The translations under genes and the position numbers were made by a program. Below the pieces are notes generated by a model that was not told the DNA's origin, made no database searches, and saw only the letters and a program-made list of their open reading frames with translations. Positions 6,036 to 55,755 of a DNA stretch of 64,000 nucleotides are shown one piece after another (position 1 is the first letter of the stretch; each line of letters starts with the position of its first letter). The stretch spans positions 9,708 through 73,707 of the forward strand of contig CAMJWT010000005.1 of assembly GCA_946409545.1 (NCBI GenBank), read 5' to 3'. Origin of the DNA: an uncultured Clostridia bacterium (GTDB taxonomy: Bacteria > Bacillota_I > Bacilli_A > RF39 > UBA660).

Positions 6036-6058
6036 AAAGAGTGACTAAGTCACTCTTT
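6036..6058 (-). terminator. Intrinsic terminator after surface protein A
   Basis: 10-bp hairpin AAAGAGTGAC-taa-GTCACTCTTT immediately 3' of the stop at 6060. A U-rich tail follows on the minus strand. Confidence 0.65.
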
Positions 6059-6059
6059 A

Positions 6060-8528
6060 TTATTTATTTACTACAACAGAATCCTCATTTGATTTAGTGC
6101 CATTACTATCAATAGCTAGTACTTTCAAATAATGTCCATTAACTGACATAATATAGAAATCAAATTTTGTACCACTTAAATCATCAAAATAATAAGTTTT
6201 GTTGTATCCACTACTAGAATTATAAGTATAACCACTACCAACTTTTAGATCAAAATGTTTTGTAATTCTTGTAGCATTACTTGTATTAATTGTACAAGCA
6301 CTTGAAGTATCAGATTCACAGAAGTAAACACGGCTTATACTATTATTACTCTTTACTCTGTAACCAACGCCACGAATAGTTGTCCATGATGGATAATAAC
6401 CATACCATCTTCCCCAATCAACTGTAAATCCAGAAGAAGGTGGTGGAGTTTGACCTCCACTTCCACAATTACTACTTGAAGTTATTGTAGATTGATATAC
6501 ATATCCTGATTTACCCATGTAACTACCCCATACTTGACCACCATTGTGAACGAAGCAACCTTGATTACCTCTATTAATGTATGAAGTACATGCATTTTGT
6601 CCATATTGTGTAGATACGGTATAACCACCGCCACTAGTTCCCCAGCGACATTGACCGCTACCATTACAATAACATGCATTTGTTTGTGCTGGAGGTGTAG
6701 AAGGTGAAGTAGAACAACTACTACTTGATGTTATATGAGATACATAAGTATATCCTGATTTACCCATATAACTACCCCATACAAGACTACCATTATATGT
6801 AAAGCAACCTTGATTACCTCTATTTACATATGCACTACATTCATTTAATCCATATTGAGTATATGTTGTATAGCCACCACCACTAGTAGCCCAACGACAT
6901 TGACCACTGCCATTACAATAACAAGCCGTTGTTTGAGCTGGTGGTGTTGGTGTATTAACTTTAATATTTACATATCTTGTTAAGACTGCACCATCTTTTC
7001 CTTTATAACTTGCTTGAGCCATAAAGACTGTTATACCATTTTGACTAAATGTGAATGGACCACTATATATAATATTAGGAGTACAACTGCTCTTTGTACC
7101 ATATGTATAATAACAATATTTTATTGTGTCATAATTTCCACTACCACTTATAGTTAAAGTTGGATATGAAGTACGTTCATTTTTTAAAGCATTATCATAT
7201 GATGTTTGAATAGCATTATTATTACTTGTTATTTTTACAGTACCAACACTAGTATCTCCACCACCGCTAGGACTTCCTCCACCACCTGGATCACTAGGTG
7301 TTGATGGCTTATTAACATTAAATTTAATATTTGTACTAACACTTGGATTACTTACAGAAGATACTTTAACAGTTGCACTTCCACTATTTAAAGCACGTAC
7401 ATAACCAGTTGTATCAACTGATATTACTGATGTATTACTTGATGAATATTTAAGTTCTTGATTTGTTGCATTAGCTGGATTTACAACTGCAAGTATTTGA
7501 TGCGTATCACCAACATTTAAATTAACAAGTGTATCAGTAGCAGTAATACTTTTAACTGGTACATCTTTAGCATTAACACGAACAGTTGTTGTTGATAAAA
7601 CACCACCACAAGAAAGGGTTACTTTAGCTTCCCCAGCTCCTACTGCAGTTAAGTTTCCATATTCATCAACAGTAACAACACTAGTATTATTACTAGACCA
7701 TTCAATAAATTTTAAAGTTGCATTAGTTGGTAAATATGTATACTCAGCTTTTTTCTTTTCACCTTCAACTAAATTATATTCATTATTTTTTATCATTAAT
7801 GATGAAGGAAGTAAATAAATTCCTGGTGTTACTTGTTTATCAATAACATTTACCGTTATTGTTGCTGTCATTGATTCATTTAATTCGACACGAACAGTAC
7901 TAGAGCCAATACTAACAGCATTTAATTCACCCGTTTCTTTTTCAACACGAACAACATTTTCATTCGTTGATGAATATTTAACAGATGATACCATCGCATT
8001 ACTAGGTGTCTTTTGATAATTAAGCGTATATTTACTATTTGGTGACATCACAACAGTACCATCTTTGAAACTAACTGATACTAAATTAACACCTGCTTGT
8101 CCTTCAAAAACAGTTACTTCACAAGTTTGTGAATAAGCTTTTTTATTTCGATCAGTATAAGTAGCTGTTATTGTTGCTTTACCTCTTGATACACCACGTA
8201 CTAAACCATGATCAACAGTAGCAACATTAGTATCACTACTACTCCAAGATACATCTGGATTAGAATTATTATTAACTTTTAATTCTAATTGAACAGATTT
8301 ACTAACACCAACATTTTCTGTTGTTGATGATATTGTAACTTCTGTATCAGTAGGACTAGTTGATCTACTACTACCTCCAAATATTAACATTAAAATTATT
8401 AATAATATTATTCCGCCTAAAACCCATACTAACTTTTTATTTTCTTCATAAAAAGTCATAAAACTATTTGACGAAGAATTACCACTATCATCGTCATAAT
8501 CTTCTAAATAATCTTCATCATCGTTCAT
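6060..8528 (-). CDS. Large surface protein A: acidic N-tail, one TM, Big_2 Ig-like repeats, two tandem six-Cys modules
   Basis: I trimmed the ORF to the ATG at 8528 (GGGTGA RBS). The TM is LVWVLGGIILLIILMLIFGG. Repeated Big_2 signatures are present (W.SS(D/N)..VATVD..G.V..VS.G.ATITA). A G/S/P linker is followed by a two-Cys module (IKYCYYTYGTKSSCTP) and then 2 x CYCNGSGQCRW...RGNQGCF...WGSYMGKSGY...C. There is no LPXTG. Confidence 0.75.
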   Translation of the reverse strand: MNDDEDYLEDYDDDSGNSSSNSFMTFYEENKKLVWVLGGIILLIILMLIFGGSSRSTSPTDTEVTISSTTENVGVSKSVQLELKVNNNSNPDVSWSSSDTNVATVDHGLVRGVSRGKATITATYTDRNKKAYSQTCEVTVFEGQAGVNLVSVSFKDGTVVMSPNSKYTLNYQKTPSNAMVSSVKYSSTNENVVRVEKETGELNAVSIGSSTVRVELNESMTATITVNVIDKQVTPGIYLLPSSLMIKNNEYNLVEGEKKKAEYTYLPTNATLKFIEWSSNNTSVVTVDEYGNLTAVGAGEAKVTLSCGGVLSTTTVRVNAKDVPVKSITATDTLVNLNVGDTHQILAVVNPANATNQELKYSSSNTSVISVDTTGYVRALNSGSATVKVSSVSNPSVSTNIKFNVNKPSTPSDPGGGGSPSGGGDTSVGTVKITSNNNAIQTSYDNALKNERTSYPTLTISGSGNYDTIKYCYYTYGTKSSCTPNIIYSGPFTFSQNGITVFMAQASYKGKDGAVLTRYVNIKVNTPTPPAQTTACYCNGSGQCRWATSGGGYTTYTQYGLNECSAYVNRGNQGCFTYNGSLVWGSYMGKSGYTYVSHITSSSSCSTSPSTPPAQTNACYCNGSGQCRWGTSGGGYTVSTQYGQNACTSYINRGNQGCFVHNGGQVWGSYMGKSGYVYQSTITSSSNCGSGGQTPPPSSGFTVDWGRWYGYYPSWTTIRGVGYRVKSNNSISRVYFCESDTSSACTINTSNATRITKHFDLKVGSGYTYNSSSGYNKTYYFDDLSGTKFDFYIMSVNGHYLKVLAIDSNGTKSNEDSVVVNK
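6465..6923 (-). repeat. Two tandem 210-nt coding copies (the 70-aa six-Cys module), separated by a 39-nt ST/P linker
   Basis: 6714-6923 and 6465-6674 both begin at ACAATAACA (CYC on the minus strand) and end at a Cys codon. The peptides CYCNGSGQCRWATSGGGYT.. and CYCNGSGQCRWGTSGGGYT.. are near-identical. Confidence 0.8.
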
Positions 8529-8592
8529 AACAATCACCCAAGATAATTATACTTTTTATATAGTAAATTTGCAATAATAATTGGATTTAAAA

Positions 8593-8616
8593 AAAGAGAA
8601 AAATTAATTTCTCTTT
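8593..8616 (-). terminator. Intrinsic terminator after surface protein B
   Basis: Hairpin AAAGAGAAA-aattaa-TTTCTCTTT just 3' of the stop at 8628, followed by a U-run on the minus strand. Confidence 0.6.
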
Positions 8617-8627
8617 TTTATATTTCT

Positions 8628-11600
8628 TTAATGTATTTTAGTTACTTTCCAATACATATATCTTCCTGGAGTTCCAGAAGAACCTATTCTAGTATCAGAC
8701 ATATCAATAGAATAAACGGTATATGTCGTTGGAGGTATATAATGATAATTACTGTTTATTATAACTGGTGCAATTGCAAATATTAATTTTTTATCTGGAT
8801 GGGCTACGCCTCTATTTTCGGCTTTAGATAACCATTCAAACTCAAAAGCAATATCAGTTGTAGATTCAACTGCACTACTTGAAGGACGTATGAAATACCA
8901 TTTATTTAATGTTGTTTGTTCAGGAATCTTATATTTAGTAAATGACTTCTTATTGAAATCATTAAAGACTATACCTTGTCCTAAACTAGTTAATTCATTA
9001 TCAGATGTAAATGCATAATTTGGAGCAAGGGCATTTCCTGTTGGGAATTTACATGAATTAGCAACAGAACTGATAGATGGATTAGATGATGAAGATGTAT
9101 AATAACAGAACATAAGAGCTCCATATTTAACATTTCCTTTAATTGTTTCGAAACCAATTACAGGTATATTTCCATTATTTAATACACCACCATAGTTACT
9201 TGCGCCTTTAAATAAACTAATAGAACTTATTTTAGCTGTACAATTGTCTTTATTACTACTTCCTTCATAGAAGTATGAATATTCACTAGTTTTAGCCATA
9301 TATGCTCCCCAAGTGAACATACTATTGCTCTTTTTAATAAAGCATCCTGTTTGTTCACCATCATATTGACCTTTTCGATTAATATATCTTTGACATTGTT
9401 CTTTAGTTACACCACTAATTTTTGTATATCCAGTTCCACCACTAGTTGTCTTACAAAGACCATTTGACATACAGAAGCAACCTTCTTCTGCCGGTTGTAC
9501 TGCTTTAATTGTAATAGTTCGACTACCACATTCTTTATCATTATGAGTTGAATCACCTTTAATTCTTACATAAACCGTTGTTGTACCAACATCTTTTCTA
9601 GTGGGTTTAGTTGTTGACCATGTACCTGATGTAGAAGTACGGTATTCAATAGTTCCACCACTTCCACCTGATACGGTAATAGAATGATCTTTTCCATCAT
9701 AATAACCATCATAAGAATTCATTGTTGTTGGACAAGTAGGATCAGTTTTAGTTGGTGCTGATTGACAATTACTTCGTTCAACATGTGACATATATGCATA
9801 ATTACTCTTATTCATATAACTACCCCATACACGGTTACCATTATATATAAAGCATCCCTGATTTCCATTTCCTATATATCTTTCACATTCGTTTTTATCA
9901 TCGGGAATAGAAACTGATACAGTATAACCTGTTCTAGCTTGTCCCCATATACATTGTCCACTTGAATTACAATAACATCTATCACTTGGATTTTTAGCAA
10001 GACAATCACTTTGTCTTGTTATACCAGATTGATAAATATATGTTTCTGGTACAGAGAAATTTGATCCCCAATAATAGTTGTTTCCACTATCTTTGAAACA
10101 TAAATATCCTTGTTTAGCAGCATTACACCATTCTTTTTTATCTAAGGCTTTTGCTTGAACAACATTCGTTGCATTTGTAGGTTTAGTTCCCCAAGTAAAG
10201 TTTGTTCCAACACCTTGACTACTAGAACTTACATAACAATGTTCTTCGTTTGCTGGTGGACTAACTGGTGTACCAACTTTAACATATTTTATTACTTTAG
10301 CACCTTCTGTATTATTGTATATAGGGATAAATTCATAGAAATAAGTACCAGGAGTATTTAACGTAAATGAATAAGTGCCACTTGATAAAGATTGTGTGCT
10401 ATAAGAAGAACAACTTCCACCAATTGGTGCATGACAATATTTAAATTTATCAACATTACCAGTTTTAGTAACAACAATAGCAGCAGCAGGTCTTGCATTA
10501 GCTTCTGCTCTATCTTGACTATCATATACTCCACTAATTATAAGCTCACCTACATCTGATGAAGGTGGATTAACTGGATCATCTGGCGGATTAACCGGAT
10601 CATCTGGTGGATTATCACTAGGAGTACTACCAGCTTTTATTGTTACATATCTAACTATTTCTTGACCTTTTTTTCCTTGATAAACAGGAACTATTTTAAA
10701 TACATATACTTTCTTACTAGTTACTGTTACTTCTGGCAGATTAATAGGGTCCATATATATGTTTTGTGGAGTACAATTAGAACTTACTGCCTTATCATAT
10801 TTACAATATCTTATTTCTTCAACATTACCACTAGGAGTCATTGTAACAGTTGTATTTTCAACTTCAATTCCAGGTAATTCCGTTGAAACTGAATTATTAG
10901 TACCAGTAACAATTACGGTTCCAACAGTAACCGTTTCACCACCACCGTTACCGCCATCATTACCTCCATTATTACCACCATCATCAGTTGGTGGAACATA
11001 ACTTGTGTCTTCATTAACCGTAACATAAATTGTTTTCTTTATTTCTAAATTAGAACTTGGTGATACTGTAATAGTTGTACTACCACTACCAATTGCAGAA
11101 ATATTGCCATCATTATCAACACTAACAACTGATGGATTATCAACTAAATATGTAACTACTTGATTAGTAGCATTACTTGGTTCAACAGTAGCAACTATTT
11201 TCTTTTGGTCGCCAACATTCATTGTAATATTTTCTTCACTTGATAAATTAATTCCTGTAACAGGAACAGTTCCTGATTTAACACGAACAACCATTGTATC
11301 TTTTAGTCCCATTGATACAATTGCAACTTCAATATTTCCAGGTTTTTTTGCAATTAATTCACCATTAAATACTGTAGCAACTTCTTCATCAGCACTTACC
11401 CATATAACATAATCAGTACTTGCTTCAGCAGGTTCTTGATGATATGTTAATGTCTTCGTTTCACCTTCTGTTAAAGTTATTTCTTTTTCATCAAAAGCAA
11501 TACTAGTAGGAATGGTATAAATACCTGGAGTAATTTGACTTTCTACTACTTTTATTTTAATACTTGCCATTTTTTCAGCATCATTAACAGCTACTCTTAT

Positions 11601-12215
11601 CATAGCTTCACCTTTAGCGTTAGCTGTAATTAAACCTGTATTAATATCAATACTTGCAATCTCAGGTTTACTTGACGCAAATATTTTATTTTTAGGTCTT
11701 GCTTCAGGAGGTGTCATTTGAATAGGTACCTGATAAGTTGAGCCAACTGGCATTATAATAGTACCAGATTCTGAGAATTTAAGGCTTTCAACTTTTAAGT
11801 TTGGATCCCCTTCTGTAACGGTAACTTCACATTCATATTCATGACCATCATATTTACCAATTACAGTAGTTTTACCAACTTTTACGCCTTTGATAACACC
11901 TGTTTTATCAACAGAAACAATTGATGGATCTTTACTAGTCCATACAACACCTGTTACTTCTTTACCATCTTTCATCAATTTTAATTGATTTCCTGTATCC
12001 GTTGTAACCGTTAAAGTTTTCTCTGATATTGTAATACCTGTATTATTACTACCTCCACCAGAGAATGCAATCATTAATATTATTAATAATAAAACAACAA
12101 CTAGAACAATTACTAACTTTGTATTTTCTTTTATAAAATTCATTAGTTTGTCCATACCTGATGCATTACTTTCCGATCTTTTATCTTCTTCTAAATCGAA
12201 CTCTTCATTATCCAT
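8628..12215 (-). CDS. Large surface protein B (paralog of A and C), 1195 aa
   Basis: Same plan as A: acidic N-tail, a juxtamembrane MDKLMNFIKENTKLV motif, one TM, Big_2 repeats, a GGN/PPDDPVN linker and two-Cys modules. Three Cys-rich modules follow (variant CYVSSSSQGVGTNF.., canonical CYCNSSGQCIW.., divergent CFCMSNGLC..), then a C-terminal domain shared with C. Confidence 0.75.
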   Translation of the reverse strand: MDNEEFDLEEDKRSESNASGMDKLMNFIKENTKLVIVLVVVLLLIILMIAFSGGGSNNTGITISEKTLTVTTDTGNQLKLMKDGKEVTGVVWTSKDPSIVSVDKTGVIKGVKVGKTTVIGKYDGHEYECEVTVTEGDPNLKVESLKFSESGTIIMPVGSTYQVPIQMTPPEARPKNKIFASSKPEIASIDINTGLITANAKGEAMIRVAVNDAEKMASIKIKVVESQITPGIYTIPTSIAFDEKEITLTEGETKTLTYHQEPAEASTDYVIWVSADEEVATVFNGELIAKKPGNIEVAIVSMGLKDTMVVRVKSGTVPVTGINLSSEENITMNVGDQKKIVATVEPSNATNQVVTYLVDNPSVVSVDNDGNISAIGSGSTTITVSPSSNLEIKKTIYVTVNEDTSYVPPTDDGGNNGGNDGGNGGGETVTVGTVIVTGTNNSVSTELPGIEVENTTVTMTPSGNVEEIRYCKYDKAVSSNCTPQNIYMDPINLPEVTVTSKKVYVFKIVPVYQGKKGQEIVRYVTIKAGSTPSDNPPDDPVNPPDDPVNPPSSDVGELIISGVYDSQDRAEANARPAAAIVVTKTGNVDKFKYCHAPIGGSCSSYSTQSLSSGTYSFTLNTPGTYFYEFIPIYNNTEGAKVIKYVKVGTPVSPPANEEHCYVSSSSQGVGTNFTWGTKPTNATNVVQAKALDKKEWCNAAKQGYLCFKDSGNNYYWGSNFSVPETYIYQSGITRQSDCLAKNPSDRCYCNSSGQCIWGQARTGYTVSVSIPDDKNECERYIGNGNQGCFIYNGNRVWGSYMNKSNYAYMSHVERSNCQSAPTKTDPTCPTTMNSYDGYYDGKDHSITVSGGSGGTIEYRTSTSGTWSTTKPTRKDVGTTTVYVRIKGDSTHNDKECGSRTITIKAVQPAEEGCFCMSNGLCKTTSGGTGYTKISGVTKEQCQRYINRKGQYDGEQTGCFIKKSNSMFTWGAYMAKTSEYSYFYEGSSNKDNCTAKISSISLFKGASNYGGVLNNGNIPVIGFETIKGNVKYGALMFCYYTSSSSNPSISSVANSCKFPTGNALAPNYAFTSDNELTSLGQGIVFNDFNKKSFTKYKIPEQTTLNKWYFIRPSSSAVESTTDIAFEFEWLSKAENRGVAHPDKKLIFAIAPVIINSNYHYIPPTTYTVYSIDMSDTRIGSSGTPGRYMYWKVTKIH

Positions 12216-12292
12216 ATATTACTCCTCTATTATAATTTTATTACATCTTCACAATTTAGACAATATATACACCAAAAAATTAATGTAAACAA

Positions 12293-12316
12293 AAAGACTT
12301 ATTTGAATAAGTCTTT
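12293..12316 (-). terminator. Intrinsic terminator after surface protein C
   Basis: Hairpin AAAGACTTAT-ttga-ATAAGTCTTT 3' of the stop at 12321, with flanking A/T runs. Confidence 0.65.
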
Positions 12317-12320
12317 TTTA

Positions 12321-15300
12321 TTAATTAGTATATGTACTACCGAATATAGTATCCGTTAAATCCGTAATAGTCCAATCACTAAATCGATTAAAATTATCTT
12401 TATTTCCACTTACGCGTCCTATTTTTATTCTATATACACTATAACCCGAAGTTGCACTTAAGTGGTTCGTCGAAGAGTGATATGGTGAAAATACAAAGAT
12501 GATATTTTCACTATTAGAACCTTTATCTTTCAAGTCAGAATCAGAAATATAACCAAATTCATAAGCAAGTAAATTGGTAGATGTTCCATAACTTGTTCCC
12601 GTAGCCTTATACACTTTTTCACGATCGGTTAATTTAAAGGTTGTATAATCAGCTACTCCATTAACAAACTTTCGATTATAAGGACTAATAGACGTAGAAC
12701 TTCTAGTTAAATCACATTTTGATGCAATTTCTTCTTTTGTTGGAGTACCATTTGCTCTTGTATAATAACAAAGTAACATACCATTATGTATAGCCGATGC
12801 ATGTAACATAGTAAACGCAATCATTGGATAACTATTTGGAGATAATACATTACCATTATAATAATTATTCATGAAATTATTACTTAAATGTCTACCATAG
12901 AATACGAAACTTAATCCACCATTATATGTTTTAGAAAGGGTTTTTCCATTTGTTAAAGTTGCTGTTACAACTGTATTTGAACCAACACCTTCTAATCTAG
13001 CTATTCCTTTTTGGCTATCAGTAAATCTTAATATTGTATTATCATTACTTTTCCATGTAACACCAGTTTGACAAGCACTTGCTGGGGTTGAAGTACAAGA
13101 GAAATGATATGAACCATCATTTCTACTAATTTTATAATCAATTGAAGTTATTTCGGCAGCAGTATTTTCACATTCACTTCGTGTTTGTTTACCACTAACA
13201 TAAGTATAACTTGTTGAAGTTGAGAAATTACTTCCCCAGAAATACTTACCTGATGAATTTTTAAAGCATAAATAACCTGCTCTAGCACTATTACATTTTG
13301 CTGGAGTATCTAAAGCCTTAGCTTCTACTTGTCCACTCGTTGCAGTAGCATTGGTCCAAACAAAATTAGTACCAACTCCTTGACTACTTGCATTAACCAA
13401 GCATCGTGATGGATTAGAAGCTTCACAATTTTCTGGCTTTGTAATAGTAGATATATAGGCATAATTTGTTGGATTTCCCATAAAACTACCCCAAATTTTC
13501 TTACCGCTATCATACGTAAAGCAACCTTCATTACCTCGATTAATATAATCTTTACATGCTGATTCTGAAACATTAGCAAGAACGGTATATCCACTTCCAC
13601 TAGTACCCCATCGACATGTTCCACCTGTTGTACAATAACAATTACTTGATTGTACCGGAGCATCTATATATACAAACCATGGATCTGGACCACGAACTAA
13701 CGAACCAGATGAATTATATTCTGAAACACGTACAGTTATCATTCCTGTACCAGTAACTGTAAATGTTCCATTATCATTAACTCTTGTTAGTGGTGTGCAA
13801 CCAGTACCTTTACATACTTTTAAATAACTTGTATTACTACTTCTAATATCAAAAGTTACTCTTTGATCACCTTTTTGATGATAACTATTAGCTGTTCCTT
13901 GATTATCAAATAAATTACCTGAAGTAACAGTATATCCTTTAGTTAAAGGTTGTGGTGTACTTCTTGGTTTTATAGTTACATATCGAGTTATTTCAGTACC
14001 TTTTTTATTTTTATAGTAAGGTACTGCTTTAATAACATATGTTGTTTTTGTTGTTACTGTTCCTGGTGGAAGTTCAAAATCATATGAATATATATTTGTT
14101 GGTGTACATGATGAAGATGAGGATTTATTGTAATAACAGAATCTTATTTCATCAACATTTCCATTACCAGTCATTGTTATTTTCGTATTTAATACTTCAT
14201 TTCCACCTTCTGACATGGATACAGCATTATTAGTTCCAACGACTGATACTGTTCCAACTTTCTCTTCAGGAGTTGGCGTTGGTGTAGGTGTAGGAGTTGG
14301 TGTTGGTTGTTCATTTACAGTTACATTAACTGTTTTATAAATACTTGGATTAGAACTTGATGCAACAGTAATTGTTGTTACGCCACTATTTAATGCTTCC
14401 ACAATTCCTTCACTATCAACACTAACAATAGTTGGATTATTTGCTGAATAAGTAATTACTTTATTAGTTGCATCATTTGGTTCAACAGAAGCAACTATTT
14501 TCTTTGTATCCCCAACTCTCATTATTAAATTATCATCAGTAAATAATCTAACACCTGTTACATCAACGATTCCTTTGTTAACATGAACCATCATTGAATC
14601 TTTTAATCCAACAGATGTTACGGATATTTCAACGTCACCTGGCATTTTAGCAACTAATTCACCATTGTAAACAGAAGCAATTTCTTCATTACTACTTATC
14701 CATACAACATAATCAGTAATAGCTTCAGCTGGCTCTTGGGTATATGTTAATTGTTTAGTTTCACCTTCAATCATTGTTATATTTTTTTCATTTAAAGTTA
14801 ATCTTGTCGGAATGACATATATTCCTGCAGTAACTGGTCCATCCATAACCATTAATTGAATAGTAGCTAACTTTTCTCCACTATTTACCAAAACAGTAAT
14901 TGTTGCCGTACCGCTAGTTTTTGCTGTAATAATTCCGGAAGTCTCATCAATCGAAGCAACACTTGGATTACTTGATGAAAAGACTTTATTATTAACTTTG
15001 GCTTCCGCTGGTGTTACTTCAATAGGAACTTCAAAAGTATCACCAACACTCATTAAAATCGTTCCCTTTTCGGAAATGACGACTTTTTCTACTTTGATAG
15101 ATGGATCTCCTTCACTTACCGTAACTTCACACTCATAATCTTTTTTATTATAAGTTCCAACAACTGTTGCTTTTCCAAGAGATACCCCTTTTACAGTACC
15201 ATCTTTTTCTACTATCGCAATTTCTTCTTGTTTACTCATCCATTCAACTTTTGATGATTCAACAATCTTATCATCTTCTAAAATAAATAATTGTTTACTT

Positions 15301-15542
15301 GAATCAACAGTAACAGTTAATTCTTCATTACTAATCTTTACATTGGTCTTTGTCTCTTCACCATTATTAGACATAAGACCCATAATTATTAAAAGTAAGA
15401 TTACAACACCACCAACAATAACAAGTTTTTTATTTTCTTTCATAAAATTCATGAACTTATCCATGCCAGTTTGTTCAGTGTTGTATTCTTCTTCACCACC
15501 TTCTAATCCTTCCTCTTCTTCATATTCATAGTCGTTCCCCAT
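12321..15542 (-). CDS. Large surface protein C (paralog of A and B), 1073 aa
   Basis: Acidic N-tail, MDKFMNFMKENKKLV plus a TM, Big_2 repeats, a (TP)n linker and a two-Cys module (IRFCYYNKSSSSSCTP). It carries a canonical six-Cys module (CYCTTGGTCRWGTSGSGYT..RGNEGCF..WGSFMG), a variant module (CLVNASSQGVGTNF..GYLCFKNS..) and a C-terminal domain homologous to that of B. Confidence 0.75.
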   Translation of the reverse strand: MGNDYEYEEEEGLEGGEEEYNTEQTGMDKFMNFMKENKKLVIVGGVVILLLIIMGLMSNNGEETKTNVKISNEELTVTVDSSKQLFILEDDKIVESSKVEWMSKQEEIAIVEKDGTVKGVSLGKATVVGTYNKKDYECEVTVSEGDPSIKVEKVVISEKGTILMSVGDTFEVPIEVTPAEAKVNNKVFSSSNPSVASIDETSGIITAKTSGTATITVLVNSGEKLATIQLMVMDGPVTAGIYVIPTRLTLNEKNITMIEGETKQLTYTQEPAEAITDYVVWISSNEEIASVYNGELVAKMPGDVEISVTSVGLKDSMMVHVNKGIVDVTGVRLFTDDNLIMRVGDTKKIVASVEPNDATNKVITYSANNPTIVSVDSEGIVEALNSGVTTITVASSSNPSIYKTVNVTVNEQPTPTPTPTPTPTPEEKVGTVSVVGTNNAVSMSEGGNEVLNTKITMTGNGNVDEIRFCYYNKSSSSSCTPTNIYSYDFELPPGTVTTKTTYVIKAVPYYKNKKGTEITRYVTIKPRSTPQPLTKGYTVTSGNLFDNQGTANSYHQKGDQRVTFDIRSSNTSYLKVCKGTGCTPLTRVNDNGTFTVTGTGMITVRVSEYNSSGSLVRGPDPWFVYIDAPVQSSNCYCTTGGTCRWGTSGSGYTVLANVSESACKDYINRGNEGCFTYDSGKKIWGSFMGNPTNYAYISTITKPENCEASNPSRCLVNASSQGVGTNFVWTNATATSGQVEAKALDTPAKCNSARAGYLCFKNSSGKYFWGSNFSTSTSYTYVSGKQTRSECENTAAEITSIDYKISRNDGSYHFSCTSTPASACQTGVTWKSNDNTILRFTDSQKGIARLEGVGSNTVVTATLTNGKTLSKTYNGGLSFVFYGRHLSNNFMNNYYNGNVLSPNSYPMIAFTMLHASAIHNGMLLCYYTRANGTPTKEEIASKCDLTRSSTSISPYNRKFVNGVADYTTFKLTDREKVYKATGTSYGTSTNLLAYEFGYISDSDLKDKGSNSENIIFVFSPYHSSTNHLSATSGYSVYRIKIGRVSGNKDNFNRFSDWTITDLTDTIFGSTYTN

Positions 15543-15621
15543 ATATTACTCCTCTATTATCATTTTATTACAAATTATTGAAGATAACAACAAATAAAAA
15601 AAATAAACATCAATAAGATGT

Positions 15622-15879
15622 CTATTTATCAAACTTATCAGCTACAGAATTAATTCTTTGTAAACTAAATCGATATTTTTGTTTAACTTTAGGATACTTT
15701 TCATGATCTACTTCTGATAAAAACATATCAAGAGGTCTTATCCATAAACCCATATCACCATATAATCTACGATAAATAACATATTCTTCTTTCGTTTCTG
15801 AATGTAAACATTTATCTATTACTAAATAATAGTCTCCTTTAAAATGACGATAAATTCCATTAATTTTTAACTTTCTCAC
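15622..15879 (-). CDS. DUF1653 family protein
   Basis: GIYRHFKGDYY..YVIYRRLYGD..LWIRPLDMFLSEVD is the DUF1653 signature. The likely start is the GTG at 15879, 5 nt after a GGAGG that sits inside the longer tracked ORF. Confidence 0.65.
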   Translation of the reverse strand: MRKLKINGIYRHFKGDYYLVIDKCLHSETKEEYVIYRRLYGDMGLWIRPLDMFLSEVDHEKYPKVKQKYRFSLQRINSVADKFDK

Positions 15880-15938: not shown

Positions 15939-17207
15939 TTAATATACTTCTTCTACTGTAACATCAGCGTATGCAAATTCTTCTACATAATCTGCAACAT
16001 CGCCAGTACTTTTAGCCTCACCATCAACAAGGAAGTTTCTAGGATCTACTTTTTCAATACCTTCTGTTTCCATGTTATGAGAACCAGTATATTCACCAGA
16101 TAAACTAATCTTTAATACTTCATCAAGATTTGCTTGAGTTGGTAATACTGATGTTGGATTATTATAAATTGTTAGAGCAAGTAACTTAGATGCTCCAAGT
16201 GGTACATATATTGCATATAATGATTCTCCACCTTGTTTGATAGTGAATAAATGATATTTTGTACCAGAATAATCTTTTTCACCTTTATAATCCATTGTAA
16301 ATCCTTGACTTGTACCATTGCTAACTACTTTTTCAGGAGAAATTTGTGAATAAGAATAATCCATCAATTTCATATAGAATCCAAATGTACCATCATCAAT
16401 ATTTAACATTCCACTTTCAGTTTTAACCATAAACTTAGTTGGAACTTCAAATGTATAACCAGAGAAATCTACTTTCTTAGTACTAACAGCTACTGGATTA
16501 TCATTTCCTCCATCATTTCCATCATCATCGTTATTAGTTAAAGCTTTATATCCAAAATATCCACCTACAGCAAGACCAAGTATTAATAAAATAATTAATA
16601 CGACTTTCATTGCTCCGCCTTTACTTTCTGGTTCTGGAGCAATTGGTGCATTATTCATAGGCATTCCTGGAACTGGAGCTGGTGTCGTTGGTTTTGGTGG
16701 CATTGGCATAGGCATAGGTTTAGCATTAGCTACCATACCATTTGGTTTAGGAGGCATTCCATTATTTGGAGCTGGTTTATTACCTGGCATTCCATTATTT
16801 GGAATTGGTTTATTACCTGGTAAACCATTATTTGGAATTGGTTTATTACCTGGCATTCCATTATTATTTACATTAGGTTTAATTCCTGGCATTGGGCCTA
16901 GAACTTGTGTTTCTCCCAAATTCATTCCATGATTAGGCTTTGGACCTAGATTGTTATTAGGTTGATTCATTGGCTTTACAGGTCCTGGTCCTACTGGTCC
17001 ATTAACTTTAACCGGAGTTGGTGGTTCCACCTTAACTGGAGTTGGAGTTGGATTCATAGGTTGATTTGAGATAGGTTTAGGCATTGGAGCTGGTCCTTGT
17101 GGATTAGCTGGCATACCTACATTATTATTTTTTTGAACTGGTGTTCCACATAATTTACAAAACTTGTCCTCTGGAACTAAAGGACTTCCACAATTTTTAC
17201 AATTCAT
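15939..17207 (-). CDS. Zinc-ribbon / Pro-rich linker / TM / extracellular domain protein
   Basis: I trimmed the ORF to MNCKNCGSPL..CKLCGTP (a CxxC..CxxC zinc ribbon) with a GAGAGG RBS. It continues with a long P/N/G-rich linker containing tandem NNGMPGNKPIP units, a TM (VVLIILLILGLAVGGYFGY) and a ~190-aa ectodomain of unknown fold. Confidence 0.6.
   Translation of the reverse strand: MNCKNCGSPLVPEDKFCKLCGTPVQKNNNVGMPANPQGPAPMPKPISNQPMNPTPTPVKVEPPTPVKVNGPVGPGPVKPMNQPNNNLGPKPNHGMNLGETQVLGPMPGIKPNVNNNGMPGNKPIPNNGLPGNKPIPNNGMPGNKPAPNNGMPPKPNGMVANAKPMPMPMPPKPTTPAPVPGMPMNNAPIAPEPESKGGAMKVVLIILLILGLAVGGYFGYKALTNNDDDGNDGGNDNPVAVSTKKVDFSGYTFEVPTKFMVKTESGMLNIDDGTFGFYMKLMDYSYSQISPEKVVSNGTSQGFTMDYKGEKDYSGTKYHLFTIKQGGESLYAIYVPLGASKLLALTIYNNPTSVLPTQANLDEVLKISLSGEYTGSHNMETEGIEKVDPRNFLVDGEAKSTGDVADYVEEFAYADVTVEEVY
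16748..16868 (-). repeat. Tandem 33-nt coding repeat (about 3.5 units) encoding (P)NNG(M/L)PGNKP(I/A)
   Basis: The unit ATTATTTGGAATTGGTTTATTACCTGG(C/T)A(T/A)(T/A)CC recurs head-to-tail on the plus strand. Confidence 0.8.
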
Positions 17208-17218
17208 CTTACAACCTC

Positions 17219-18835
17219 TCAACTATTTTCTTCGATTATCTCAAATGAAATGATTTGTTTGACAAAATCATTGTCAATTTTTTTATCATTTCCTCGTATC
17301 TTTACACTTAAAACTTTATCATCTGGCAATTTATATGTCAATATTTTAACATTAGAAACAATGTGTTTACTGTAAAGTCCATTTGTCGATTCAACATAAT
17401 ATCCACTATAGAGTTTTACATCGTAGTTATTTATCTTAATTGCTCCTTCATATTTCATTTCTTGATATTTTCCATACTTTTTACGAGCGTTTATAGTAGA
17501 ATTCTCCTGTTCAACGGCAAAAGTCTCATTAAAATCTAAACTATATCTTACATCATATGCAAAAATATCATCATCATAGTTATAATCTTTACCAAAATTT
17601 CTTATTTCATATATATTTGTTTTATAATCTACTTCTTTAAACTCTTTAGGAATAGATACTTTAATATCATATCCTTTACTTAAAACAGATCCTCTTTTTC
17701 TTAAATAACATACATAATTATTATCAACAATTTCGCCTTTTACATAACTTGAATAGTTTTTAATATAATTAATTTTAAAACTATCAATTAATTCTCTTGA
17801 TATCTCACTATTTCTATTTGAGAATTCAACCGTCATTGTATGATTACGATCTAGAGGTTGTATTAATAAAACATTTTCGTATTTACTATCACCAAGTGGT
17901 GATTCTACAGTATAACTATTTCGATACAAATATACTTGTTTATCATTTTCGTATAAACCATATAACATTAAATTTTCTTTAAAGTCCTTATTCTTTTTAT
18001 ATCCATTATATTTTCCATAATCACCATATATTTCTCTTTGTAAATACTCATAAACATTACTTAAATAGATATTTATATTTATATATGAGTTAGCTAGATA
18101 ATCACCAAAAGCAATATAATGATATACTCCTAAATTAGAATTATAATTAATACTTTGATAATTAATTGGAATATTAAAATTAACTAAATAATTATTATTA
18201 GCAATCTCTTCTGTATATGTTTTATCTAATCCTTGATATTGTGGATTCTTTTCAACTAATTCAAATTCACTTGTTTTAATAGATAATTCATCACCTAATG
18301 AATAATCTTTATCTAATAACGTAAAATTATAAATAATATTATTTACACTATCTAGTAACATATCAAAATATTTGACATTTGCTTCAAACTTAATTATTAC
18401 AACTCTACTACCTTCTTTATAAACACCTATTTTTACATTTTTTGTTTCATTTTCATATAGTAACCAATATCCACTAAAATTATTTTTTGTAATATTGGTA
18501 CTTTTTTTAGATAACAATTGATAATTTTCATTATTTTTTTCAATTTCATATCTAATGTCATCAATTAAACTATCAATATCTAAATATACTTTTTCACTAT
18601 CAAGTTCATAAATATTAAATGATAAATTACCTTTACCATGAGATAAAACAATATGATTATCATCTCTACTCTTTATAGACCAACTATTATCATATTTAAC
18701 ATAATAATTATCAGTAGTATAATCTTTCGTTTCTGATGAAAAATTCTTATAAAAGATAATAACTGCGAATGATAATAATAACATTATTATGGAGATTATA
18801 AATATCATTTTATATTTCTTTATAAAATTCATCAT
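17219..18835 (-). CDS. N-terminally anchored extracellular protein, unknown function
   Basis: 538-aa ORF with an N-terminal TM (MIFIISIIMLLLSFAVIIFY). Its start overlaps the upstream stop (ATGA-type coupling) and its stop lies 11 nt before the next start. I recognised no motifs. Confidence 0.5.
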   Translation of the reverse strand: MMNFIKKYKMIFIISIIMLLLSFAVIIFYKNFSSETKDYTTDNYYVKYDNSWSIKSRDDNHIVLSHGKGNLSFNIYELDSEKVYLDIDSLIDDIRYEIEKNNENYQLLSKKSTNITKNNFSGYWLLYENETKNVKIGVYKEGSRVVIIKFEANVKYFDMLLDSVNNIIYNFTLLDKDYSLGDELSIKTSEFELVEKNPQYQGLDKTYTEEIANNNYLVNFNIPINYQSINYNSNLGVYHYIAFGDYLANSYININIYLSNVYEYLQREIYGDYGKYNGYKKNKDFKENLMLYGLYENDKQVYLYRNSYTVESPLGDSKYENVLLIQPLDRNHTMTVEFSNRNSEISRELIDSFKINYIKNYSSYVKGEIVDNNYVCYLRKRGSVLSKGYDIKVSIPKEFKEVDYKTNIYEIRNFGKDYNYDDDIFAYDVRYSLDFNETFAVEQENSTINARKKYGKYQEMKYEGAIKINNYDVKLYSGYYVESTNGLYSKHIVSNVKILTYKLPDDKVLSVKIRGNDKKIDNDFVKQIISFEIIEENS

Positions 18836-20526
18836 GTTACTATCACCACCACTAGATAATCAAGCTCTTCCATAATTGTAATTTGATAATTGTCTTTCTC
18901 ATATATATATTTTTTATTACTAGCAAGAACTTCTTTAAAACCATTTTTAACTAAGTTATTTCTAAATGAAAGTGACATTTGAATTGTATTAACATAATTA
19001 GCCATATTATTTTGATATCTTAAACTTACAACACCATTATTATAATTAGCTTTAATTAAACGCATATGAATGTTTTCTTCAATCTTAGTAATATCATTTA
19101 TTTCTTTCCATTTACTATCACTTATATTAATATTTTCTCTTTCGACACCATAATTAACATAATAATGATCCTTAAGTTCACTAAATGGTATTACTTTAAT
19201 ACTATTAAAATCAATATTATTAAATTTCTCTTGAACTTCTATTAAAGCTTCATAAGGAACTTCAAGAGATGTTGGACTATTAATTAACATTGATGTACTC
19301 ATACCAATTACATAACCATCGATATTAAAGATAGGACTTCCTTCATCTTGTAAAGATAAGGGGATTGTACTTTGATAATAATCATCATTAGAAACTAATA
19401 ATCCTTTTATTGCGGAATAACTAACAACATTATTGGAAATCGAAATAACTGGATCACCAATTTTAATATCTTTAGATAATTTAACATAACTATCTGTTTC
19501 TTCTACTAATTTTAATAAAGCAATATTAGCTTTTTTATTAACAGTAACAATACCATCAACTTCATATGATTTATTATTACTAAGTACGGTTAATGATTGA
19601 CCATTTTGAAGAGTTCTTAATAAGAAATCCCATGTTGTAACAATTAATCCTTTATTAATAAAGAAACCATTTCCAATAAAGGAACTACCGCCTTCATAAT
19701 TATTATTATAATAAGATATAATTGTAGCTAAATTCTTTCGATTATTCTCATATATTTTATTCAAATCTTCATTCGTAATATTTTTTAATTTATTAGTATT
19801 ATAAATATTATTAATAGATGAATCATATTGAGGGGCTATATTAACTTGATTACTTTTACCATTATTTTTAACAGAATCTAAGTACTCTTCAATTGAATCT
19901 TTCGTTTCACCAACTAAATAATATAATTTATATACACCATTTAATGGTTTGTAATAATAATAAAGAATTAAATTAGTACGAACATCCATATATTCAAGAG
20001 GATTATCAGGATCTTCTTGTTTCATTGTAATATTTGGGAGTAAAACCGCACTTATAATTACATCATTACTTTTAAAAACACGAATATCACCAAATGATGA
20101 ATATTTTATATCAAGTTCATTTATTTGATTAAACATACCTGGAACGGAAAAACCTGAAATAATATCATCTTTATACTCTTGACTATTTTCATCTAAACCT
20201 GTAACACTATTAGGATCTTTAGGAACGACAGGATTATATCTTAGTTTTAGGTATTCATTATGTCTTCGATAAAAATCTTCCGTCTTTTCTTCTTTAAAGT
20301 TCTTAGTACCTAATAGTAAATATGTCGTTTTTTTAGATAAATCAATTATTTCATTACCAACATCATCATATTTTATTTCATAAGATAATTTATACTCATT
20401 AGGGAAACTAGATAAAATATCATCTTCCATATTAAGATTTATTTTATCTTTGACAACAAAAGTATCTGAAGCATAAACAACTATGAAAACAAAAAGAATA
20501 ATTACAAAACATATTTTCTTTTTCAT
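18832..20526 (-). CDS. Signal-anchored protein with a C-terminal-half trypsin/HtrA-like (Trypsin_2) fold, probably catalytically degenerate
   Basis: I trimmed the ORF to MKKKICFVIILFVFIVVYA (GGAGG RBS; the ATG lies 1 nt after the upstream stop). GNGFFINKGLIVTTWDFL ... ANIALLKL ... DEGSPIFNIDGYVIGMS aligns by eye with GSGFII..G.ILTNAHVV / DLALLK / GNSGGPL. Confidence 0.55.
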   Translation of the reverse strand: MKKKICFVIILFVFIVVYASDTFVVKDKINLNMEDDILSSFPNEYKLSYEIKYDDVGNEIIDLSKKTTYLLLGTKNFKEEKTEDFYRRHNEYLKLRYNPVVPKDPNSVTGLDENSQEYKDDIISGFSVPGMFNQINELDIKYSSFGDIRVFKSNDVIISAVLLPNITMKQEDPDNPLEYMDVRTNLILYYYYKPLNGVYKLYYLVGETKDSIEEYLDSVKNNGKSNQVNIAPQYDSSINNIYNTNKLKNITNEDLNKIYENNRKNLATIISYYNNNYEGGSSFIGNGFFINKGLIVTTWDFLLRTLQNGQSLTVLSNNKSYEVDGIVTVNKKANIALLKLVEETDSYVKLSKDIKIGDPVISISNNVVSYSAIKGLLVSNDDYYQSTIPLSLQDEGSPIFNIDGYVIGMSTSMLINSPTSLEVPYEALIEVQEKFNNIDFNSIKVIPFSELKDHYYVNYGVERENINISDSKWKEINDITKIEENIHMRLIKANYNNGVVSLRYQNNMANYVNTIQMSLSFRNNLVKNGFKEVLASNKKYIYEKDNYQITIMEELDYLVVVIVT

Positions 20527-20527
20527 A

Positions 20528-21634
20528 TTATGCCTCCACATACTTCTTAAGTATACGCATAATATACTTACTAGGAAGTGACGCCTTATCATCATTTAGA
20601 TAAACATCGTGGAAAGCTTCCGCAATCGTTTCATCATAAATATACTTACCACTTTCATCTTTAGATAAAGCATATTTAGATATTTCTTCTCTCCATTTAT
20701 CAAATTCTATTTTTTTATTACCTTCAGATAAATATAATTCATAAGCTTCATCAAGCATCTTTTTACTAAATTCACCATTTGAAAAATTATCAATTAAAAC
20801 ATAAGCTTCTTTAACATTACTATTATTAAAAAGTAAAGATTGTGTTATTTTATAATATTTACGCATAGCAAAAAAAGATAAATAATGGCCTAGTTCATGA
20901 GCAACAGGAGAAGCCTTTGTTGAATTAGGTGGAAAATGACCAGATAAAGATGAATTCTTAGTAGATTCTTCAAGTAAAGAATTATTTAAGAAGAATCTTG
21001 AATTTAAAACAACTCTCATTTTATAAACAATACTATTATCCCCTTCAGCGAATGGGAAAAGTGGTTGATAATAAGCAATTACACCTTTCATTCGACTGTC
21101 CATATTACCTATTGTTAAATTAGTTATATTACCTTTAACTTTAGGGAATAATTCATATACTTTCGTCATTGCTTTATATAATTCATTTGCTAAATTAATA
21201 TCAATTTCACATAAATTAACTGCCGTAATATCAAAATCATTCATCATTTTTTCTTCAATCTTAAGAATTTCTGTTGGACAAGAATCTTTTTGTGATTTAG
21301 AATCTTTTCTAATTAATTCATAAGCTTCTTCTACATTACTTACAGTTGAATTAGAATATGTATTATTTATTTCTACAACTGTTTGATTAGTATTACGAGA
21401 ACTCTCTACAGAACTTGAAGTAGTTGGGTTTATAGAAATATAGTATGCATTGTGAGTATTATGATAAGAAATAAAAAGTACGCCAAAGAATAACAATAGG
21501 CCAACAACAAAGCCCATTATTATATATTTTTTGTTATTAGATTTTTCATTATTATCCTTAATAATTTTATTCCCACAATTACTACAAAAATTACATTCAG
21601 GAGTTAAATTATTACCACAATTTGGACAATACAT
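20528..21634 (-). CDS. Zinc-ribbon / TM / extracellular HExxH metallopeptidase-like protein
   Basis: MYCPNCGNNL..CNFCSNCGN forms the zinc ribbon. The TM is IIMGFVVGLLLFFGVLFISY. The ectodomain carries VAHELGHYLSF (HExxH). A GGGTGA RBS precedes the ATG at 21634. Confidence 0.6.
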   Translation of the reverse strand: MYCPNCGNNLTPECNFCSNCGNKIIKDNNEKSNNKKYIIMGFVVGLLLFFGVLFISYHNTHNAYYISINPTTSSSVESSRNTNQTVVEINNTYSNSTVSNVEEAYELIRKDSKSQKDSCPTEILKIEEKMMNDFDITAVNLCEIDINLANELYKAMTKVYELFPKVKGNITNLTIGNMDSRMKGVIAYYQPLFPFAEGDNSIVYKMRVVLNSRFFLNNSLLEESTKNSSLSGHFPPNSTKASPVAHELGHYLSFFAMRKYYKITQSLLFNNSNVKEAYVLIDNFSNGEFSKKMLDEAYELYLSEGNKKIEFDKWREEISKYALSKDESGKYIYDETIAEAFHDVYLNDDKASLPSKYIMRILKKYVEA

Positions 21635-21671
21635 TCTAATCACCCTATTCTAATAAAATTTTACCACAAAA

Positions 21672-21698
21672 AAAGTAATTATTAAACATAATTACTTT
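21672..21698 (-). terminator. Intrinsic terminator after the C11-peptidase gene
   Basis: Hairpin AAAGTAATTAT-taaac-ATAATTACTTT 3' of the stop at 21706. Confidence 0.55.
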
Positions 21699-21705
21699 TT
21701 AATTT

Positions 21706-30843: not shown

Positions 30844-30873
30844 AAATAGATATTATTTGCATAATATCTATTT
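30844..30873 (-). terminator. Intrinsic terminator after rtcB copy 1
   Basis: 13-bp hairpin AAATAGATATTAT-ttgc-ATAATATCTATTT overlapping the rtcB stop codon at 30868. Confidence 0.55.
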
Positions 30874-55675: not shown

Positions 55676-55755
55676 ACACACCCTCTATTATAATTATAGC
55701 AAAATAACTTATTAAACACTTATAAAACAATTAAATAATTTTTATATTTACAAAA

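Follow-up and report, generated by a model that had tools for sequence, protein, structure and literature searches.

Predicted fibrillar surface proteins of an uncultured ruminant-gut bacterium share a putative new cysteine-closed unit

Introduction

A stalk of Big_2 immunoglobulin-like (Ig-like) domains topped by a tip domain is the architecture typical of fibrillar adhesins, and small extracellular repeats with paired cysteines are found in the Ephrin_rec_like/GCC2_GCC3 (PF07699) and TNFR-like families. Carbohydrate-binding modules (CBMs) of the CBM1, CBM10/anaerobic-fungal dockerin and hevein/ChtBD1 types are likewise small (30-45 amino acids, aa), closed by disulfides, furnished with conserved aromatic residues and often arranged in tandem, and some of them come from rumen organisms. 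The choline-binding 'YG' repeats of the CW_binding type contain, to our knowledge, no cysteines. Here we compare with these systems three neighbouring genes, named A, B and C, of an uncultured Clostridia bacterium (Genome Taxonomy Database, GTDB, lineage Bacteria; Bacillota_I; Bacilli_A; RF39; UBA660). They lie in a stretch of 64,000 nucleotides (nt) from GenBank assembly GCA_946409545.1 (contig CAMJWT010000005.1, positions 9,708 to 73,707), which was analysed in full and is called the window below.

A preliminary description of this DNA had presented the genes as tandem paralogs encoding a giant surface protein which carries an unassigned module of about 70 aa with six cysteines. The three neighbouring minus-strand open reading frames (ORFs) were recovered exactly to the base (Table 1); their products, of 822-1195 aa, are large, and "giant" overstates their size.

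Results and Discussion

The six-cysteine module and its elementary unit

At their given positions the Cys-rich modules translate exactly to the motifs quoted for them, and a hidden Markov model (HMM) profile of the modules, run over all six frames of the window, found seven copies (two in A, three in B and two in C) and none elsewhere. The preliminary description had sorted them into three types. All are present as described, including a divergent form in gene B which carries an insertion, has no first Trp and is kept in the homolog P0033, but they appear to be variants of one design. The two modules of gene A share 81% DNA identity, and because of this their duplication is not very recent.

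The six-Cys module is real; its elementary unit, however, is shorter, about 35 aa with two cysteines, and is also found free-standing in other proteins. The module is probably composed of two such units in tandem, each closed by a Cys pair, with an extra pair in the first. Positions 2-76 of a profile made from the window modules only align end to end with residues 139-210 of the homolog P0035, a segment consisting of exactly two consecutive free two-Cys units (140-170 and 178-208). Separate profiles of the two module halves were compared by hhalign with 113 free units from about 25 proteins, and 60 column-shuffled profiles served as controls. The C-terminal half matched the free units with 98.7% probability (E 3e-16, score 57.6, shuffled maximum 21.7), and the N-terminal half with 91.3% (E 9e-7, score 24.5; shuffled mean 7.1, standard deviation 1.8, maximum 14.8). 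The spacing from the first to the fifth cysteine (C1 to C5), 39 aa, falls within the 35-41 aa period of free arrays. The free repeats have the consensus ACYxDxxGxYxWGxYxxxxGYTLVxxIxxxxxC (about 32 aa, two Cys), and the pattern proposed for the family is C-[YF]-x-[DN]-x2-3-G-x-[YC]-x-W...GY[TS]-x-[VI]...C; the terminal cysteines of both module halves are invariant in 31 modules.

One module was modelled with AlphaFold2 (AF2), as the preliminary description had proposed. An alignment of 31 sequences yielded a confident fold, with a mean predicted local distance difference test score (pLDDT) of 95 and a predicted template-modelling score (pTM) of 0.78, all five models reaching at least 93.5. In the model a hairpin-strand-helix succession is seen twice. 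The first unit is predicted to form strands at residues 2-5 and 11-14, short strand contacts at about 17-23 and a helix at 28-36; the second has strands at 41-45, 48-52 and 61-63 and a short helix at 69-71. Strand 1 holds the first Cys of each half, and the helix holds the last. C2 (residue 5) and C3 (residue 11) flank the first hairpin loop, and are therefore expected to face each other. The unit may accordingly be pictured as a beta-hairpin to which a third strand and a short helix are added, with the strand-1 Cys and the helix Cys closing it. The six-Cys module would consist of two units joined head to tail (C1-C4 and C5-C6), of which the first bears an additional cross-hairpin pair, C2-C3; loss of this pair would have produced the four-Cys variant.

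Conservation and pairing of the cysteines

Modules of the window and of metagenomic homologs, 31 in all, were compared. Every one of them has C1, C4, C5 and C6. At least 90% also possess C2 and C3, which are lost solely together, in the four-Cys variant; three modules have gained two extra cysteines, again together, and the modules contain four, six or eight cysteines and never an odd number. The preliminary description had made its view depend on the cysteines being kept in orthologs, and there they are conserved. From the places of the cysteines in the AF2 secondary structure we infer the pairing C1-C4, C2-C3 and C5-C6, and independent support comes from Cys conservation, from the joint loss of C2 and C3 and from the even parity. 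Outside the Big_2 region, the distal ectodomains of A, B and C hold 16, 24 and 18 cysteines, respectively.

It could also be supposed that the cysteines bind a metal (e.g. Zn, in a CxC...C...C knuckle) or stay reduced, and that the module is stabilised by the metal. The first unit indeed has four cysteines (C1-C4) including a CxC motif, and a strongly reducing environment, together with a window in which no oxidoreductase was found, would suit such a state. The free unit, however, has two cysteines, too few for a metal site, yet it displays the same fold-defining residues, and the four-Cys variant drops C2 and C3 while keeping C1 and C4. Gains and losses of cysteines always come in pairs, no conserved His, Asp or Glu partners are seen in the alignment, and the three to four conserved ligands per site in every copy that mark a zinc knuckle were not found. 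We consider a metal-bound or reduced module very improbable.

Disulfide-type Cys spacing had been called unusual in itself for extracellular proteins of a low-GC Firmicute. This applies mainly to aerobes and has to be tempered for anaerobes: Daniels et al. demonstrated cysteine exclusion for exported proteins of aerobic Firmicutes, in which 70% of exported proteins are Cys-free vs 33% in anaerobic Firmicutes (PMC2823432). It is still notable that surface proteins of a rumen anaerobe are so dense in strictly paired cysteines, and that such pairs co-occur with eukaryote-type disulfide repeats in sister proteins.

Family members and relation to described domains

A profile from the seven window modules was run exhaustively with HMMER against 1.84 billion representative proteins. 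It retrieved 35 clusters at E<=1e-3; the module family is rare. A word-indexed profile search of 5.8 billion proteins with the seven-module alignment had no match, which reflects the low sensitivity of the word filter. Three groups of homologs were recognised. Orthologs or paralogs on the same plan make up the first (P0032, P0033, P0034, P0006, P0037 and P0038), and in the second (P0045, P0047, P0049 and P0053) the N-terminal plan is shared and the C-terminal half is different. The third, termed class ii, comprises about 25 proteins with an N-terminal transmembrane (TM) segment and a C-terminal array of free units placed just before a C-terminal TM anchor; these often bear Ephrin_rec_like/TNFR-like repeats or Big_2 domains. 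P0001 is 95% identical to gene B. P0032, the ortholog of gene A, has 70% identity and bears the name 'Ig-like domain-containing protein [Bacilli bacterium]', and one cluster member is annotated 'uncharacterized protein YjdB'.

The preliminary description could place the modules in no known family, and the searches bear this out. Pfam gave no match to them at E<=1 (whole proteins) or E<=10 (isolated modules), nor did NCBIfam; a sequence profile search of the PDB returned a single antibody at E 0.025, judged a chance match. Precomputed Pfam matches on the homologs (release reaching PF28550) were to Big_2-type families only. Foldseek, which used the PDB and BFVD as libraries and has limited power for 74-residue disulfide-rich domains, found no neighbour of the model (PDB best E 1.2, TMq 0.18; BFVD best E 0.9). 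The module was encoded in none of the GTDB representative genomes, in which the MgsA-like ATPase of the window has matches of at most 58% identity across many Firmicutes, and it was carried by none of the viral or phage contigs. Nothing relevant was found in the literature on Cys-rich repeats with Big_2 domains in rumen bacteria. The contig of the class-ii protein P0086 also encodes SpoIVA and SirA, and the unit therefore extends to sporulating Firmicutes.

Judged by these profile searches, the Cys unit appears to represent a previously undescribed domain family; it is the unit that is new, and the whole proteins belong, as a variant, to the well-known Big_2 fibrillar surface protein/adhesin class. 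That the unit constitutes a genuinely new fold and family confined to a narrow set of uncultured gut Firmicutes with eukaryote-style disulfide-rich surface proteins is a tentative proposal, about which we have somewhat more doubt than confidence.

Two candidate Pfam assignments were discarded. PF26918, seen on homologs and suspected to be the module, is Ig_Eae, matching faintly inside the Big_2 region. Herpes_UL1 (glycoprotein L, PF05259) matched residues 394-445 of P0042, which are two consecutive free units, with 25.4 bits against a cut-off of 20; this was regarded as chance, since one of 26 family members matches. The Herpes_UL1 model can evidently be hit by Cys- and aromatic-rich repeats.

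The unit resembles the Ephrin_rec_like/TNFR-like repeats in being a small extracellular repeat with paired cysteines, and such repeats co-occur with it in P0005, P0006, P0008 and P0036 and in 5 of the 26 class-ii proteins. It differs from them in its two end cysteines per approximately 32 aa, its Y/W/G core motif and its hairpin-strand-helix topology. PF07699 and PF23091 had no match over A, B and C (E<=1) or in isolated modules (E<=10), and their matches in homologs lie in other C- or N-terminal regions. Its 'D/N-x-x-G-x-Y-x-W-G-x-Y' hairpin has a Gly turn and aromatics in alternation and in this recalls the CW_binding_1/choline-binding repeats, but the unit is longer, includes a helix, is closed by cysteines and has no Pfam match.

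The likeness to the small disulfide CBMs is one of design only, as the order of the conserved motifs differs. It nevertheless raises the possibility that the Cys units are miniature, disulfide-stabilised, aromatic-rich CBMs which bind plant cell-wall or host glycans multivalently. Each 32-aa unit keeps about five aromatics (CY..G.Y.WG.Y...GYT.V), more than so small a core needs; tandem arrays hold as many as seven units per protein, the habitat is the ruminant gut, and in the window genes the units occupy the distal half of the ectodomain. Against this, no match of the unit to CBM1, CBM10/fungal dockerin, hevein, EGF, Sushi or CW_binding was found in Pfam or by Foldseek (Pfam E<=10; Foldseek PDB best E 1.2), no glycoside hydrolase or polysaccharide-utilisation genes are present in the neighbourhood, and in most family members the arrays directly adjoin the membrane anchor, which is the position of a stalk. 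A carbohydrate-binding function of the units is, in our estimate, unlikely, though less so than metal binding.

In many class-ii homologs (e.g. P0035 aa 17-50, P0042 aa 345-385, P0057 and P0061) a second conserved Cys-rich motif, 'TCYY...C...Y.C..YYNRCCG', precedes the unit arrays. It forms the end of a conserved domain of about 150 aa without family assignment, and is itself uncatalogued.

Protein plan: anchor, stalk and distal domains

The proteins follow a shared plan. Each begins with an acidic N-terminal tail (D+E vs K+R: 11/0 in A, 9/3 in B and 13/2 in C), which is followed by its sole strongly hydrophobic segment (Kyte-Doolittle, KD, > 1.6), with Lys residues just before it; a hydrophobicity scan found no second TM segment in A, B or C. 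The acidic cytoplasmic tail and single TM segment of the preliminary description are thereby found in all three proteins, and together with the preceding Lys residues they point to a predicted signal-anchor topology of type II, N-in and C-out. For the Big_2 domains, "four or more" had been proposed; Pfam gives exactly four matches to PF02368 in each protein and no more (E 1.7e-36 to 8.6e-33, the lowest value being that of gene A), and the stretches score 112-125 bits against a cut-off of 22.8. The low-complexity linker that had been noted is also present, rich in G/S/P in A and in PT in C.

Beyond the stalk the proteins diverge. In A the complete order is tail, TM, four Big_2, G/S/P linker, one 95-aa two-Cys module, two six-Cys modules and a tip of 123 aa. 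In B the Big_2 domains are followed by two 95-aa two-Cys modules, a four-Cys module, a six-Cys module, a repeat domain of about 80 aa, the divergent six-Cys module and a B/C-type tip. The PT linker of C leads to a 95-aa two-Cys module, a second two-Cys domain, a six-Cys module, a four-Cys module, an Ig-like domain and a B/C-type tip. The two-Cys module of about 95 aa that had been reported is thus found once in A, twice in B and once in C, where a different two-Cys domain accompanies it.

Neither the 95-aa module nor the tips matched Pfam at E<=10. The A-type tip, which is kept in P0032, P0037 and a 737-aa gene A ortholog on the related metagenome contig L002 (see below), is unrelated by profile to the 95-aa modules (hhalign 3.8%) and likewise to the B/C-type tip, so that the three appear to be mutually unrelated domain types. 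AF2 predicted an all-beta B/C-type tip at low confidence (pLDDT 60); its best Foldseek match (E 1.2) was noise, and a PDB sequence search gave no match.

The approximately 80-aa beta domain of gene B ('YDGK.H.ITVSGG.GGTI.YRTST') had no local Pfam match. It is 47-55% identical to the tandem repeats of P0014, and many other proteins match this segment alone. Copies of the repeat are flanked by a Cys pair (TCP...ECGS) in this family (P0005, P0008) and in the pseudopilin-like P0016, and are without it in P0011 and P0014; this is the second case in which a borrowed domain has been given a Cys-pair staple.

Compared with Big_2 fibrillar surface proteins and adhesins (YjdB-type), A, B and C are alike in their four tandem Big_2 domains, their elongated, surface-anchored multi-domain build and their distinct terminal domain. 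They differ in the anchor, an N-terminal signal-anchor TM with acidic tail in place of LPXTG/sortase, SLH or lipobox, and in a distal half made of Cys-pair modules and of tips that match no family.

Table 1. Positions of genes, protein regions and transcription signals at the A/B/C locus (window coordinates)
Feature	Position	Strand	Residues and cysteines	Basis or detail
Gene A	6060-8528	(-)	822 aa	ORF, ATG start
Gene B	8628-12215	(-)	1195 aa	ORF
Gene C	12321-15542	(-)	1073 aa	ORF
Gene A TM	~8364-8429	(-)		hydrophobic segment
Gene B TM	~12057-12119	(-)		hydrophobic segment
Gene C TM	~15363-15428	(-)		hydrophobic segment
Gene A four Big_2	~7314-8345	(-)		Pfam
Gene B four Big_2	~11016-12038	(-)		Pfam
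Gene C four Big_2	~14307-15347	(-)		Pfam
Gene A six-Cys module 1	6714-6923	(-)	aa 536-605	module HMM 88 bits
Gene A six-Cys module 2	6465-6674	(-)	aa 619-688	sequence modelled by AlphaFold2
Gene B canonical six-Cys module	9765-9977	(-)	aa 747-817	module HMM 89 bits
Gene C canonical six-Cys module	13425-13640	(-)	aa 635-706	module HMM 87 bits
Gene B four-Cys variant, without C2 and C3	10002-10238	(-)	aa 660-738	module HMM iE 1.6e-6
Gene C four-Cys variant	13170-13403	(-)	aa 714-791	module HMM iE 2.9e-7
Gene B divergent six-Cys module	9240-9479	(-)	aa 913-992	module HMM 64 bits, iE 2.8e-19
Gene A ~95-aa two-Cys beta module	6963-7253	(-)	aa 426-522, Cys 472/482	31 homologous copies
Gene B two 95-aa two-Cys modules	10641-10919, 10266-10562	(-)		
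Gene C 95-aa two-Cys module	13968-14255	(-)		
Gene C second, different two-Cys domain	13653-13955	(-)		
Gene C Ig-like domain with Cys pair	12903-13160	(-)		
Gene B ~80-aa beta domain	9501-9734	(-)	aa 828-905	Cys 828 and Cys 896 flanking
Gene A tip, A-type	6063-6431	(-)	aa 700-822, Cys 737/745	
Gene B tip, B/C-type	8631-9239	(-)	aa 993-1195, Cys 1037/1055	
Gene C tip, B/C-type	12324-12902	(-)		
Putative terminator hairpin 3' of gene A	6036-6058	(-)		-11.9 kcal/mol, z -5.1
Putative terminator hairpin and U-run 3' of gene B	8590-8619	(-)		-11.1 kcal/mol, z -4.35
Putative terminator hairpin and U-run 3' of gene C	12291-12318	(-)		-12.1 kcal/mol, z -5.6
Putative terminator hairpin of upstream DUF1653 gene	15603-15625	(-)		-8.1 kcal/mol, z -5.4
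Promoter-like site 5' of gene A, TTGCAA-17-TATAAT	8546-8574	(-)		consensus match alone
Promoter-like site 5' of gene B, TTTACA-16-TATATT	12262-12289	(-)		consensus match alone

Paralogy and transcription units

The paralogy of the three genes, which share the plan and the predicted N-in, single-TM type II surface topology, was confirmed. Identity is 34% between A and B, 35% between A and C and 42% between B and C; paralogs at 34-42% identity would have diverged anciently. Gene A has an alternative upstream GTG start at 8537.

A terminator had been claimed for each gene, and a hairpin followed by a U-run was found 3' of A, B and C. These are AT-rich hairpins of 10-12 bp (-11.1 to -12.1 kcal/mol, z -4.4 to -5.6), and 0 of 200 shuffled sequences folded equally well. 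Two of them are missed by a terminator consensus scan, which needs at least three G-C pairs. The terminator of the upstream DUF1653 gene appears to isolate gene C transcriptionally, and with the promoter-like sites (Table 1) the three genes have the signals of separate transcription units. The preliminary description had gone on to speak of independently expressed variants of one adhesin. The separate terminators agree with this; independent expression itself is an extrapolation, the identity of the proteins is 34-42%, and the transcript evidence (below) is thin.

The chromosomal context of the locus is ordinary. On one side it is flanked by genes for an AddB-like nuclease and dUTPase_2, and on the other by DUF1653, Zn-ribbon membrane protein, Trypsin_2 and Peptidase_C11 genes.

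Variation between strains, and habitat

A related locus was found on a 94-kb JGI metagenome contig (L002), in which all flanks are syntenic and two paralogs are present vs three in the window. The first of them (P0002) is B-like over residues 1-804 (77% identity) and then continues with a C-type distal end. The second, the gene A ortholog of 737 aa, is 91% identical over the N-terminal 577 aa and has one six-Cys module vs two. For the more distantly related homolog P0006 there is one gene only, and its surroundings differ. It appears from these comparisons that the stalk is conserved, while the distal domains and the numbers of paralogs and modules have been reshuffled between strains. Other metagenome contigs over the locus are short, with 'joints' whose sides measure 21-27 nt in AT-rich sequence.

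Alternatively, the proteins might not be adhesins at all, but envelope or coat components, or variable decoys or receptors in contact with phages or host immunity; the variation would then reflect diversifying selection and not specificity for a ligand. Paralog number, module number and distal-end mosaicism vary while the flanks stay syntenic, and three separately terminated genes would permit differential expression. On the other hand, no inverted repeats, invertase or recombinase genes or phase-variable tracts were found near the locus, no phage or viral contig carries the module, and the paralogs are old; a Big_2 stalk with a tip is the typical build of a fibrillar adhesin. We regard a coat or decoy role as quite unlikely, ranking it below carbohydrate binding and above metal binding.

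The DNA of the locus is present in gut metagenomes of sheep, cattle (bovine) and goat, its GC content is 20-33%, and the orthologs are named 'MAG: ... [Bacilli bacterium]' at the National Center for Biotechnology Information (NCBI). In ruminant metatranscriptomes a few low-depth contigs agree exactly with gene A at 6382-6745, and further ones correspond to parts of B; an apparent peak at 14268-14307 corresponds to the PT-repeat linker only.

The favoured reading and the points that weigh against it

The reading we favour, and hold to be moderately probable, is that A, B and C are adhesin-like fibrillar surface proteins in which the Cys units serve as disulfide-stapled structural or stalk modules. 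The genes would encode type II membrane-anchored proteins of a very low-GC, Bacilli-class bacterium of the ruminant gut. Four Big_2 domains would form the proximal stalk, and a flexible linker would lead to a distal part of shuffled small beta modules with a variable tip at the end. The Cys pairs, as disulfides, would staple very small domains, which would thereby gain rigidity and withstand the abundant proteases of the gut. The units would act mainly as stalk or spacer, a role suggested by the arrays adjoining the membrane anchor in most family members, and would hold the variable distal domains off the cell, while the C-terminal tips would attach to a substrate or to a host or microbial surface.

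Several observations weigh against this reading. The homology of the N-terminal half of the module to the free unit is probable and not certain: a plain free-unit HMM scores the N-terminal halves weakly (iE 0.6-17), and the terminal cysteines were imposed by the regular expressions used to extract the units. The proposed pairing is deduced from secondary structure, co-loss and parity. The preliminary description had suggested a check for extracytoplasmic thiol-disulfide oxidoreductases in the genome; at the scale of the 64-kb window no Trx, Dsb or VKOR was found, and no thiol-disulfide oxidoreductase in the flanks of related loci, a result which covers these regions and says little about the genome. 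As the rumen habitat is strongly reducing, this negative leaves oxidative folding unproven, and disulfide formation is a deduction from the paired cysteines. In the window genes the units are distal and not membrane-proximal, which also fits a binding role. The tips have no fold or family match, and no direct tie of the proteins to adhesion was found. Finally, the RNA contigs are few and of low depth, and could include DNA carry-over.

Other genes of the window

Directly upstream of A, B and C lies a run of membrane-protein genes (15939-23991, minus strand) which is syntenic with positions 1017-9102 of L002. It encodes proteins with an N-terminal cytoplasmic zinc ribbon of 427 aa (with Pro-rich repeats), 371 aa and 761 aa (with Peptidase_C11/clostripain), a 587-aa Trypsin_2 protein and a 538-aa protein without a Pfam match. 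The run might form a surface-protease module with a functional link to the adhesin-like genes. At 16761-16892 (minus strand) the gene of the 427-aa protein contains a tandem repeat of 33 nt/11 aa (NNGMPGNKPIP-like). A metatranscriptome contig skips 36 nt at 16826-16863, and DNA contigs have a 6-nt deletion at 16705, which suggests that the repeat number of this gene varies between strains.

Four further observations were made on the minus strand. Two RtcB (RNA ligase) paralogs (30868-32100 and 37452-38693), about 5 kb apart, flank a DUF7674 gene and an ORF of 1264 aa (32535-36329); the latter has no Pfam match and no Cys unit, and lies between the DUF7674 gene and the second RtcB paralog. At 53837-55681 three Big_2 domains are fused to a Y_phosphatase3 domain (tyrosine phosphatase family), unusual for an apparently exported protein, and at 59807-60751 a Listeria-Bacteroides repeat (Flg_new) is combined with Phage_lysozyme2, likely in a cell-wall hydrolase.

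Conclusions

The module is uncatalogued and has a confident predicted fold without structural neighbour, and constructs of 32-75 aa could be expressed and their structure solved. Once it is redefined as a unit of about 35 aa with two cysteines, the window genes can be connected with a broader assemblage of Cys-rich surface proteins from uncultured ruminant-gut Firmicutes. The current picture of the Firmicutes is mostly one of cysteine avoidance (PMC2823432). If the Cys pairs are disulfides, strict anaerobes would have to form and keep them outside the cell in a reducing habitat; the finding would then imply that such organisms possess, even in the highly reduced rumen, an unrecognised capacity for oxidative protein folding at their surface. 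The unit might also represent a miniature binding module of a new class. With distal ends that vary at a conserved locus, A, B and C are likely to determine the specificity of attachment in a little-known rumen lineage.

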